64,000 bases of DNA from Nitrospirota bacterium (GCA_963790025.1 CAWBMP010000004.1:160001-224000); one strand, 5' to 3'. Positions 45,994 through 49,299 are shown, numbered from the stretch's first letter. The notes: generated by a model not told the origin, from the letters alone. Numbers and translations are program-made.

Positions 45994-46010
45994 GCTCGGA
46001 GGTTGGCCTT

Positions 46011-46340
46011 ATGGGGATGGAAGCAGGCGGCTGGATTGAAAAAAGAATTAATCCCAGGATACCTGCATCAGGTGAAGTATTGTTCAGGGCACATTGGATA
46101 TCCGACTTTTACGGAAGCAATCTCTCTTTAAGCACATACTTACATGCCGACCTGATAGACACGAGCATCGATGGTATGCGCATAAAGACATCTTTCCCCC
46201 TAAACAAAAAAGACGTGTTGGAACGCGTCTCGCAATATACCGATTCTCTTAGACAGACAGAACTGGTGAAATGGGTGGAAAAAATAGATGATTGCTATTG
46301 CGCAGGCCTCCAGTCTGTGCGTGAATTGAGCAAGCTGTGA
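46011..46340 (+). CDS. PilZ-domain protein; stop codon supplied by the MITE
   Basis: RINPR (RxxxR) and DTSIDG (DxSxxG); GGAGGT RBS. Confidence 0.75.
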   Translation: MGMEAGGWIEKRINPRIPASGEVLFRAHWISDFYGSNLSLSTYLHADLIDTSIDGMRIKTSFPLNKKDVLERVSQYTDSLRQTELVKWVEKIDDCYCAGLQSVRELSKL

Positions 46341-46498
46341 ATCGGCATCGAATATTGACCCGGCATCGGCGTCGAATTGTGACCCGCATATCGTAAATAT
46401 AACAGCCAGAATAACAAGCAGTTAATGGATATAGAAGCGGGTCAAGTTTGAATGCCGATATAGCTTAAAAGTGGGTCAAATGGCTGTGCCAATTCACA
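46336..46498. mobile_element. 163-bp IS21-type MITE, copy 1
   Basis: TG...CA termini; TGTGAATCGGCA-N7-TTGACCC ends, each with a second internal repeat; 160/163 identical to 48999-49161. Confidence 0.8.
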
Positions 46499-46753
46499 AA
46501 AAAGGCCATAAAGGCAGTAGAGGAAGTGACAGGCGTACTTTGGGATGAGATAAGCTCCCGAAGCAGGAGCAAGGAAGTAATATTTGCGCGAGGATTATTA
46601 GTTGGGGTATGGAGAGAGGCGGGGCATCGGATAGTGAACTTACAGCCCCAACTGAGGAGGGACTTATCAGTGCTTTCAAGATTGTCAAAAATCGCAGAGA
46701 GTGAAAGAGGACGAAAAGCCATGAAACAAATATTTCACATGCTAAATGCATGA
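46499..46753 (+). pseudogene. 5'-truncated helical fragment, probably the DnaA-C/TrpR-like HTH tail of a REP-associated (Y1) transposase
   Basis: KKAIKAVEEVTGVLWDEISSRSRSKEVIFARGLLV...RDLSVLSR; frame open right up to the MITE end; followed by GCCTGA|CCCC. Confidence 0.55.
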
Positions 46754-46797
46754 ACGCAAGCCTGAACATCCCGCTGGAATTTTCAATATATTTTTTC

Positions 46798-47997
46798 TTA
46801 TTTAGATAAGATGTACCCTCTGTTCTCCTTCAGCATCTTGAAAATAACACGGCAAAGATGACGACCAAGCGCACGTAGTGCCTGGTTATGTTTCTTGCCT
46901 TCAGCTCTTTTTTTCTCATAATATTGTTGAGACTGCGGAACTTGTTTTCGGTGCCGATCTACGGCAACCATCATTGCGGCCTTAGCCCGAGTATTAACCT
47001 GCGTTGGTGGTTTTGATCCTTTTTGCTTGCCTGAACTATTGTCAAGATTCGCCATCCCAATATACAGAGCCAGACTTGCTTCGCTGCCAAAGCGCTCGAT
47101 AGTTCCAATCTCTCCGGCGAGTTCAGATGTACAAATGGAACCGAATCCTGGAATGGTTGCGAGCGTTTGCGCAATATCCGAGCCGTGTGCAACACCCTCC
47201 ATCTTTGCTTCAAGTGATTTTATCTTGGCATGGAGTTCCATCACGCGGATTGCATCTTCCTGGATCATTTCACCGACCCACTCGACGTCGTGACTAAACT
47301 GTGCTGTTTTCTGCCATTCAACAATAACAGAGGCATATTTCTTACCAATGCCCGGGATCTTGCGGATAGTTGTTTCCCGCATGCGTGCAAGCGTGCGAAG
47401 GTCATCCGTGCTGGTCAGAAATCCAAGAAACCACATATTGTCGGCCTCACCGGTAATCTCCAGAAGTCCCGGACATACAGCGTGAAGATCGGCCTGTAGG
47501 TTGTTTACTACCCGTACTCGCTCATCGACCAAACGACGCCGGCGCCGTGATAGCCGCTTTAGAATGTCGTTGTCCCGCGGCGTTTTGCGTACCTCCTGCA
47601 GCACATCCTTGGCTATCGGCAGATGATCTCGAAGCTGAAAAAGCTCCAGTCCTTTCCTTGCGTCGATTGCATCGGTCTTCGCGGCACCGGGGAATATCTC
47701 CTTGAATCGAGCAAGCTTGAGATTGTTGATATTGAAGAGGCGATAATTGCGGGCTCGAACGAGCGTGTCCAGCGGACGTGCGTAGCCGTTGAAGCCCTCC
47801 ATTGCTACGGCAACGGGACAACTAAACCTTTGCTCCTGCTTCTCGATGCGACAGAAGAATTGCCGGAACCCTTCAGGTTCATGCACGATTGAGAATTCAT
47901 CGAGGACTTCACCGCTGGATAGGCCGATTGCAACGTTGTGACTGCGGCAGCCAATATCGACGCTTACACGCAGTTCGAGGGGATCATCTTTTTTCAT
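46798..47997 (-). CDS. IS110 family DEDD transposase / bridge recombinase
   Basis: VSVDIG, AMEG, KTDAIDA (DEDD); TIPGFG, EIGTIERF, NSSGK (catalytic Ser region), ALGRHL; AAGGAG RBS. Confidence 0.95.
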   Translation of the reverse strand: MKKDDPLELRVSVDIGCRSHNVAIGLSSGEVLDEFSIVHEPEGFRQFFCRIEKQEQRFSCPVAVAMEGFNGYARPLDTLVRARNYRLFNINNLKLARFKEIFPGAAKTDAIDARKGLELFQLRDHLPIAKDVLQEVRKTPRDNDILKRLSRRRRRLVDERVRVVNNLQADLHAVCPGLLEITGEADNMWFLGFLTSTDDLRTLARMRETTIRKIPGIGKKYASVIVEWQKTAQFSHDVEWVGEMIQEDAIRVMELHAKIKSLEAKMEGVAHGSDIAQTLATIPGFGSICTSELAGEIGTIERFGSEASLALYIGMANLDNSSGKQKGSKPPTQVNTRAKAAMMVAVDRHRKQVPQSQQYYEKKRAEGKKHNQALRALGRHLCRVIFKMLKENRGYILSK

Positions 47998-48021
47998 GTA
48001 GTCTCCTTTGCAGACAAGATT

Positions 48022-48213
48022 ATCATCCTCAGGTCTCGTCTACTTACAGAGCCACATTTGGCACCATCCCGGTCGACCCTTTTGAGGATGATGCAGATGA
48101 CGGAGGCGGCATTTCAGACTCAAGTGAGCCTGAATGAACAGGCCACTGACCCCACAAGCCACACCCCCGTTAAGCATATCTTACATGAATAAAGCTGCCA
48201 TAGTCATCTGCAT
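48022..48213 (-). ncRNA. Predicted IS110 bridge RNA (target-binding and donor-binding loops)
   Basis: Two internal-loop hairpins whose unpaired segments match the insertion site (UGGGGUCAG; AGUCUGA) and the end junction (CGGGAUG; GUAGA). Confidence 0.8.
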
Positions 48214-48315
48214 AAATCCTATGGTAGACCCCATTGTTTCCTTATTCTGAACTATTCGGAATTATAGCAGAATGCCATTTGAACAACTACAACAAGTAAT
48301 CTGAAATTATAGTCA

Positions 48316-48597
48316 CTACTTCGTTGCACCATGCAATTCTTCATCTACCTTCTCAGTCAGGAACATTTTCAGGAGCGATTGGTAAGGAACATCTCTCTTG
48401 TTCGCGAGCACCTTAAGATGCTCAATAAGCGATTCAGGCAGACGAATCGAGATTGTCTTAGTAGATGGCTTTAAGTTCGGAAAAGCGACCCGCTTTGCCT
48501 TTGTATAGTCAATGTACTCAGTAGAATCATGAGTCGCCCAAAAATTGACTTCTTCTGCTTCGCTTTTAAACTTCGGTATCTTCTTGAATTTGCTCAT
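48316..48597 (-). CDS. brnA: BrnA/CopG family antitoxin
   Basis: IPKFKSEAEE..FWATHD, TKTISIRLP, VPYQSLLK; overlaps the toxin gene. Confidence 0.88.
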   Translation of the reverse strand: MSKFKKIPKFKSEAEEVNFWATHDSTEYIDYTKAKRVAFPNLKPSTKTISIRLPESLIEHLKVLANKRDVPYQSLLKMFLTEKVDEELHGATK

Positions 48598-48889
48598 ATA
48601 CTCTTCTCTCCCTGCGGTTCATATCACGCGCCGAAATTATTCTTATCTTGGCTCCCCTCACTGTAAAAACAATGAAAAGTAATCTTCCGGTATCCGTTCT
48701 CCCTAAAACAAAGTATCGGTCTTCACCAATTGAATGTGACGCATCTTTCTTTACGATAATCGGATCGTTAAAGAATATCTCTTCGCATTCAACATGAGAG
48801 ACCCGATGTTTCTCCCAATTCTTCTTGATATTGCCCTCGTCCCATTCAAACCCTTCGAGTGAACCCAATATGTCGGACCAATCTTTCAT
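48566..48889 (-). CDS. brnT: BrnT family toxin
   Basis: GFEWDEGN..KNWEKH, EDRY..LG, IRIISARDM; ATG 48889. Confidence 0.92.
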   Translation of the reverse strand: MKDWSDILGSLEGFEWDEGNIKKNWEKHRVSHVECEEIFFNDPIIVKKDASHSIGEDRYFVLGRTDTGRLLFIVFTVRGAKIRIISARDMNRRERRVYEQIQEDTEV

Positions 48890-48998
48890 ATAGTATATTA
48901 TCAATATATACAAATAAGTTTTCCTTGTCAATTCTGTTACTCCTTATTTGCGACACCTGAAGATTTGAATCATAAAATATAGTCATGCAAACCCCGGC

Positions 48999-49161
48999 TG
49001 TGAATCGGCATCGAATATTGACCCGGCATCGGCGTCGAATTGTGACCCGCATATCGTAAATATAACAGCCAGAATAACAAGCAGTTAATGGATATAGAAG
49101 CGGGTCAACTTTGAATGCCGGTATAGCTTAAAAGTGGGTCAAATGGCTGTGCCGATTCACA
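48999..49161. mobile_element. 163-bp IS21-type MITE, copy 2 (same orientation as copy 1)
   Basis: Perfect 12-bp terminal IR TGTGAATCGGCA/TGCCGATTCACA; three substitutions versus copy 1. Confidence 0.8.
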
Positions 49162-49299
49162 ATCGGCCACTGTGATCAAACAATTTCTAATCGTAATCTA
49201 CTTTACAACTGTCTATCAATGGAAGCTTACGATATGGTATCTAAGTTAATCCAGGAATGAATCTGAACTGACGCAATAATAATCGTGTATAATAATTTC

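Follow-up and report, generated by a model that had tools for sequence, protein, structure and literature searches.

A multi-copy IS110-family element in a Nitrospirota genome with a predicted bridge RNA and a split promoter that would be completed when its ends join

The window analysed here, a stretch of 64,000 nucleotides from a Nitrospirota genome, carries an IS110-family insertion sequence whose two ends each hold one half of a sigma70-like promoter. This raises the question of where exactly the element ends, what its ends would form on joining, and from which form its RNA and transposase would be expressed. The evidence given below makes it highly probable that the element is an intact, multi-copy member of the IS110 subgroup with a bridge RNA in its left end (LE) and a split promoter which is completed on joining of the ends. 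Its outline is as follows.

46764..48228, minus strand: the whole IS110 element, with base-level ends from genomic copies and empty sites
46764..46765, minus strand: core dinucleotide on the right-end side, GA on the plus strand and TC in element orientation, found at both ends of 6/6 copies and single in empty sites
46766..46797, minus strand: right end (RE), 32 nt from the transposase stop codon to the core, from the sequence and the copies
46798..47997, minus strand: IS110-family RNA-guided transposase, 399 aa, from Pfam, NCBIfam, invariant residues and structure profile hits
47998..48226, minus strand: LE, 229 nt and non-coding, from the sequence, the copies and the fold
48003..48008, minus strand: Shine-Dalgarno sequence AAGGAG, 5 nt before the ATG, with AGGAG conserved in the alignment of relatives
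48227..48228, minus strand: core dinucleotide on the left-end side, GA on the plus strand, from direct reading and copy comparison

The own genome (3.45 Mb in 5 contigs) possesses six full copies of this 1,460-1,461-bp element with 99-100% identity. Each copy is preceded by ...AAGCCT-GA and followed by GA-CCCC..., and in unoccupied sites only one GA lies between these flanks (...AAGCCT-GA-CCCC...). Outside the two cores, the six copies are flanked by ...AAG(C/T)CT at one end and by CCC(C/T)... at the other. Five additional loci share only the left flank of an IS110 copy, up to the GA. Except one, these are empty sites reading ...GCAAGCCT-GA-CCCCA... (4/5), and the fifth, which is without the exact 30-mer query, was recovered by a genome-wide scan for the target motif. 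The scan found 15 AAG(C/T)CTGACCCC sites, and about 14 unoccupied target sites are left in the genome. As the bases beside the two GAs are unlike (T/A before, A/C after), the target duplication amounts to exactly 2 bp. Save for the 2-bp ambiguity inherent in the core, the boundaries are thus confirmed at single-base level.

A preliminary description of the locus had proposed a 2-bp GA core at both ends with no longer duplication, the absence of terminal inverted repeats, and an 18-mer expected at the empty site, and had left the boundaries open to contradiction by other copies. All of this held. The six copies and the single-GA empty sites agree on the core, the inner ends are identical in 6/6 copies with GA on either side, and the 18-mer occurs 6 times in the own genome. 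An inverted-repeat scan listed 69 short pairs, none of which joins the tips of the element. The sole end-to-end inverted pair is subterminal, 15 nt long at 80%, and many internal pairs are as good. Traits of the IS1111 subgroup, namely subterminal inverted repeats and an extended non-coding stretch beyond the gene's 3' end, are lacking, the RE being just 32 nt and the subterminal pair standing at the level of internal chance.

The transposase gene is the only gene in 46764-48228. Its product matches PF01548, the N-terminal RuvC-like DEDD domain, over residues 12-176 (E 7.2e-21) and PF02371, the C-terminal Tnp domain (E 1.2e-16), and scores 164.6 bits against NCBIfam NF033542 'IS110 family RNA-guided transposase' (cutoff 140). 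In an alignment of 12 proteins, the window's and 11 relatives, D14, E67, D109 and D112 are invariant together with S321-S322-G323. We take the four acidic residues to be the DEDD tetrad, by comparison with IS621 and from a partial alignment, and the serine in the S321-S322-G323 motif is presumably the catalytic residue. A search of solved structures with an alignment profile found ISCro4 (9t56) at 8.2e-10 and IS621 at 7.6e-09, and sets the SSG of this transposase onto the ESG motif of both. With the single sequence, the same collection gave no match at E <= 0.001 and weak matches at E <= 10. The weakness of the single-sequence matches to ISCro4 and IS621 marks the transposase as a distant relative of the studied enzymes.

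The 399-aa reading frame is intact in 4/6 copies. The other two share the loss of 1 nt from a C run (window-equivalent 47356), a deletion which cuts the product to 243 aa. These are L002 (C5:250278-251810) and L004 (C4:1511256-1512744), where the deletion falls in a CCC run; it may represent either a true frameshift or an assembly error in the homopolymer. Beyond this deletion just two positions vary among the six copies, and the non-coding ends are all identical. The intact reading frames, the identical ends and the remaining target sites fit an element that may be recently or currently mobile. This is in line with the earlier suggestion that it is probably still active, since four intact frames and six sets of identical ends fit recent activity.

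The LE is predicted to encode a bridge RNA of about 192 nt. It is composed of an outer stem around the target-binding loop, followed by the stem of the donor-binding loop, and its guides are assigned as follows.

48022..48213, minus strand: predicted bridge RNA, about 192 nt, from fold and consensus structure
48148..48155, minus strand: left target guide (LTG) GUGGGGUC, in sense to the left flank ATGGGGTC
48114..48124, minus strand: right target guide (RTG) CUUGAGUCUGA, antisense to the right flank TCAGGCTTGCG
48063..48072, minus strand: left donor guide (LDG) CCGGGAUGGU, to be compared with the RE ...GCGGGATGT
48039..48048, minus strand: right donor guide (RDG) UGUAAGUAGA, whose GUAGA pairs with TCTAC at the LE tip
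46764..46775, minus strand: left donor half-site AGCGGGATGT with the TC core, invariant in relatives

Folding of the 229-nt LE (48226 down to 47998) gave a z of -3.85, with 0/200 shuffles equally stable. The consensus structure of 23 aligned left ends has 49 pairs, 19 of them with compensatory changes. The outer stem is 11 bp long (AUGCAGAUGAC/GUCAUCUGCAU); it begins at 48213, 48203-48213 pairing with 48091-48101, and the portion conserved among relatives begins at 48211. Rfam 15 gave no match at E <= 1 across 46000-49000, and may hold no model fitting this IS110 clade.

The RTG pairs with the flank at 10/11 positions, 3 of them being wobble. PMC11208160 gives the rule that the LTG has the sense orientation to the target and the RTG the antisense one, and the orientations of the two guides match what that rule requires. 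On the donor side, the CGGGATG of the left donor half-site recurs in sense within the donor-binding loop as part of the LDG, and the RDG shows covariation. In the 23 aligned elements, GUAGA is found in 20/20 that begin TACCAT and AUAGA in 3/3 that begin TATCAT. The third base of this LE hexamer, the -10 half described below, shifts only along with the RDG, C with G and T with A. This compensatory change ties the bridge RNA to the exact tip of the LE. Scoring of own against other guides and targets gave 9.7 vs 9.2 for the LTG and 8.2 vs 7.8 for the RTG, a contrast which is small because the targets are nearly the same across relatives; the guide assignment therefore rests on individual compensatory cases, not on own-versus-foreign scoring. 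In the proposed mechanism, one loop of the bridge RNA would read the target ...ATGGGG-TC-AGGCTTG..., the end repeat of a RAYT-like element, and the other would read the element's own joined ends ...AGCGGGATGT-TC-TACCA....

The promoter halves are placed at the two extremities of the element.

46781..46786, minus strand: -35 half TTGAAA, 15 nt from the core, with TTG invariant in 30/30 relatives in which both ends were found
48221..48226, minus strand: -10 half TACCAT, the hexamer with which the LE opens, from the sequence and relatives
48213..48214, minus strand: predicted transcription start, 7-8 nt past the -10, from standard sigma70 geometry

Read along the minus strand, the RE has the sequence TAA(stop)-GAAAAAATATA-TTGAAA-ATTCCAGCGGGATGT-TC, in which the A/T-rich stretch GAAAAAATATA comes before the -35 half. 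The LE runs TC-TACCAT-AGGATTT-AUGCAGAUGAC.... The two hexamers had been reported at 46786-46781 and 48226-48221 on this strand, and both are present there (TTTCAA at 46781-46786 and ATGGTA at 48221-48226 on the plus strand). The arrangement TTGAAA-N17-TACCAT, predicted for ends joined through one core, was also borne out by counting, as 15 nt and the 2-nt core make a 17-nt spacer. It has 9/12 consensus matches with A2 and T6 present. The same description had placed the start near 48213 as the first base of the 5' stem of the RNA. The 11-bp stem does begin at this base, and with standard spacing the predicted start would fall on it. The TAC of the -10 along with the core (TCTAC) doubles as the right donor half-site which is paired by the RDG. 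Assuming that the sigma70 consensus holds for this Nitrospirota host, background was estimated by the criterion of 5/6, N17 and 4/6 with A2 and T6. Equally good or better sites occur at 967/6,901,904 genome positions, or 1.4e-4 per position, so that a junction-spanning register starting near the RNA stem is expected by chance at well under 1%.

Conservation of the two halves was analysed in 69 relative-encoding loci obtained from a scan of species-representative genomes, with a protein identity of 49-91% where both ends were located. Both ends were found in 30/69 loci, the LE- and RE-tip patterns being 1,458-1,609 bp apart. Among the remaining 39/69, many of which are truncated contigs or distant, 19 had the LE pattern only, 7 the RE pattern only and 13 neither. 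In 30/30 two-ended loci, TTG-N-A-A is present at the same offset, 15 nt before the core, and the LE starts with TA(C/T)CAT. Counting that of the window, there are 29 distinct end pairs. Their -35 is TTGAAA in 21, TTGCAA in 5, TTGTAA in 2 and TTGATA in 1, and the -10 is TACCAT in 25 and TATCAT in 4; the spacing is always 17 nt. The -35 count is independent because the RE search pattern left the -35 out. The -10 count in the 30 loci is not independent because the LE search pattern required TA(C/T)CAT. In an alignment chosen on RE grouping and not on the LE pattern, TC-TA(C/T)CAT is present in 18/19 sequences. The exception, L042, has it about 100 nt further out; with about 100 nt between LE tip and stem, it shows that adjacency of start and stem is not universal. 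Two relatives, L042 (26-140) and L045 (1135, 1234), have a pair of LE-tip-like sequences spaced by about 100 nt, and both sequences in L045 follow GGGG-TC. These doubled tips may have been left by repeated insertion into a single site. Conservation in the RE rises sharply at TTG, the stretch between stop codon and TTG being not conserved, and extends beyond the hexamers, covering 23 nt at the tip of the RE and 15 nt at that of the LE.

In the integrated element the -35 in the RE and the -10 in the LE are about 1.4 kb apart, and each would be without a usable partner. Scanning of the 300-nt flank and the LE of 6/6 integrated copies, by the same criteria as in the promoter tool, found no sigma70-like site. 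Hexamers in the flank 16-18 nt before TACCAT match TTGACA at just 0-4/6 positions, and those beyond the -35 of the RE match TATAAT at just 0-3/6. The poor hybrid combinations and the lack of a site in flank and LE thus leave the promoter halves orphaned in the chromosome. If the ends were joined through one TC core, either in a circle or at a tandem junction, TTGAAA-N17-TACCAT would be formed, and transcription could run from about 48213-48214 through the bridge RNA into the transposase gene with its strong ribosome-binding site. The activity of this promoter, the co-transcription of the transposase and the formation of the joined form are predictions from sequence. At that level, halves which are conserved and orphaned when integrated lend support to the earlier proposal that RNA and recombinase are mainly expressed after excision.

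Upstream of the LE, the window also contains a gene pair on the same strand.

48316..48931, minus strand: brnT/brnA toxin-antitoxin pair (BrnT toxin, CopG-type antitoxin), from Pfam

The pair ends 88 nt upstream of the LE, and no predicted terminator was found between the two. Low-level read-through from brnT/brnA into the window's copy is plausible.

The joined RE-LE sequence had 0 matches in the own assembly. The 18-nt junction motif was found in 25 metagenome contigs, 4 of them IS-related and none a clean circle. By a rough estimate, 25 contigs look like the chance level for an 18-nt motif, and most of them, having no IS features, are probably chance matches. A relative of the transposase lies beside the motif in 2/25 contigs, L096 and L099. 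The RNA model matched a full bridge RNA in L096 only and a partial one in L091, L099 and L103. In L096 the LE is preceded by an RE-like sequence which has only 19 nt in common with its own RE. L099 has an intact transposase gene and an RE with a perfect TTGACA -35 and the TC core, followed by about 22 nt of LE before the sequence departs; its RE-TC-LE junction lies at around 1302. L091 and L103 are short relics. In L103 (around 1276-1375, reoriented) the RE is joined via TC directly to the LE tip with about 22 nt of LE, after which the sequence continues through a hairpin and an inverted LE tip to GA-CCCCAT. Two preprints favour copy-out or single-stranded circles. If this mode applies here, an empty site need not arise, and the promoter would require the junction to be double-stranded.

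The reading of TTGAAA and TACCAT as promoter halves has to be weighed against their conservation as donor-site contacts of the recombinase or the bridge RNA, with an incidental likeness to a promoter. The TAC of the -10 does lie in the half-site paired by the RDG and covaries with it, and conservation spans the 23 nt and 15 nt at the two tips. As the -10 overlaps the donor half-site and the 15 nt after the -35 are conserved, conservation alone cannot separate promoter from donor recognition. The details, however, speak against mere donor contacts, for conservation in the RE begins exactly at TTG, and positions 4-5 of the -35 vary where TTG, the 17-nt spacing and A2/T6 never do, which is the pattern of a promoter. 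A match this good, moreover, occurs at only 1.4e-4 per position. According to PMC11208160, a 22-bp IS621 donor without the -35 recombines, and does so only with RNA in trans. Its competence under this requirement argues that the -35 is needed for expression and not for recombination. In that paper, the RNA start of IS621 and five orthologues was mapped experimentally to the junction promoter. An incidental likeness is accordingly regarded as very improbable.

A promoter formed at the junction might also add little if the window's copy were expressed mainly by read-through from brnT/brnA, which lie on its strand 88 nt away with no terminator-like site between. For chromosomal IS621, PMC13626964 describes upstream read-through giving low expression, enough for excision. 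The same paper states that on joining of the ends the junction promoter boosts expression and gives the stronger RNA signal. In the present genome the upstream flanks of the other five copies differ, and among relatives the split promoter is kept whatever the flank, so read-through as the main source appears improbable. The copies could, finally, be inactive relics whose near-identity comes from duplication of a larger segment or from assembly collapse. The frameshift in 2/6 copies would suit this, as would the >260 bp of left flank which two copies, L001 and L002, have in common. That common flank is, however, itself a multi-copy element whose ends are the target; the right flanks differ in 6/6 copies, four left flanks share just the ~25-nt target motif, and four reading frames are intact with every catalytic residue. 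Inactive relics are thus scarcely credible, and an intact element with a split promoter remains the preferred reading.

The target of the element is the end repeat of another mobile element, and the target context in the window is the following.

46499..46765, plus strand: 3' remnant of a RAYT-like Y1 transposase element, 267 bp, ending ...AAATGCATGAACGCAAGCCT-GA
48229..48241, plus strand: left-target flank CCCCATTGTTTCC, from copy comparison and motif scan

The 267-bp repeat is multi-copy and forms the 3' part of an about 987-bp element encoding a 316-aa protein, of which L081 10129-11115 (C4:1215128-1216114) is a full example. The protein matches Y1 transposase PF01797 (E 6.7e-16), has a weak DnaA-C-like helix-turn-helix tail, and scores 76.9 bits against NF047646 'REP-associated tyrosine transposase', just under the cutoff of 80. 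The genome possesses 3 full-length RAYT-like elements, several fragments and about 7 paralogues at 36-42% identity. The IS110 target motif is present at both ends of the element, the two being inverted relative to each other. A Tn3-type terminal repeat (GGGGTC...) had been considered as the target and was dropped, as the element encodes a Y1/RAYT-like protein. Insertion into REP-type repeats is known for the IS110 family, as described in PMC12288879.

The flanks of the window's copy are mixed. The left one belongs to the RAYT 3'-end type, after which empty sites usually continue with CCCCAgcaatc; the right one, CCCCATTGTTTCC, follows the other (5'-end) type in empty sites. The mixture (46743-46765 vs 48229-48241) suggests recombination between two IS copies or sites after insertion. 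A 166-bp direct repeat of 98% identity (46334-46499 and 48997-49162), with no third genomic copy, encloses the RAYT remnant together with the IS and the brnT/brnA genes. Elsewhere in the genome, in L081 (C4:1205000-1224000), two kinds of RAYT end occur in alternation along about 17 kb and are separated by other genes, among them those for a 432-aa helix-turn-helix-domain protein and a PIN-PhoH protein.

RAYT-like genes adjoin the IS in 8/69 related loci within 1.5-kb flanks. That the -10 letters jointly encode promoter strength and donor recognition, the two thus evolving together, and that the clade, in MAGs labelled as several phyla, specialises in the ends of RAYT-like Y1 elements, is a proposal for which we see the balance as even. 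If the specialisation is true, one mobile element would be living on the ends of another. With this locus, a bridge-RNA element that is fully delimited and apparently active becomes available from a lineage distant from E. coli. Everything from its ends and core to its guides, natural target and predicted promoter is defined, and it shares its architecture with some 30 relatives, a set useful as raw material for comparison of bridge recombinases. It speaks for the split junction promoter being conserved across the family and not peculiar to IS621, and leaves the current understanding of the IS110 family unchanged.

By analogy with IS621, the element would be a further case of the junction-promoter switch-on already described there. 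The two are alike in a DEDD and serine recombinase, a 2-bp core without terminal inverted repeats, and a bridge RNA in a long LE, with the LTG in sense and the RTG antisense to the target and LDG and RDG reading the donor (IS621 of E. coli; 8wt6 etc.). Both insert into repeated extragenic sequences, and both have a sigma70 promoter divided by the core, with the -35 in the RE and the -10 in the LE, as given for IS621 in PMC11208160 and PMC13626964. The differences are several. The protein is distant (phmmer E 0.0034; profile E 7.6e-09, C-terminal domain only) and has 399 aa compared with the 328-residue IS621 chain. The core is TC here and CT in analyses of IS621, the target-binding loop is situated inside a long outer stem starting at the predicted transcription start, the RTG is longer with 9-11 pairs, and the target is the end of a RAYT element. 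ISCro4 (9t56) is the best structural relative by profile (E 8.2e-10), with confident alignment in the C-terminal domain only.

Other members of the family offer further parallels. The transposase of ISEc11 is reportedly driven by a promoter, Pjunc, assembled at the joined ends; that element differs in belonging to the IS1111 subgroup with subterminal repeats. IS492 is likewise said to excise and form circles and to have a junction promoter. ISPpu9 and ISPpu10 of Pseudomonas putida and IS4321/IS5075 reportedly insert into REP palindromes or the terminal repeats of other transposons, whereas the target of the present element is the end repeat of a RAYT-like Y1 element.
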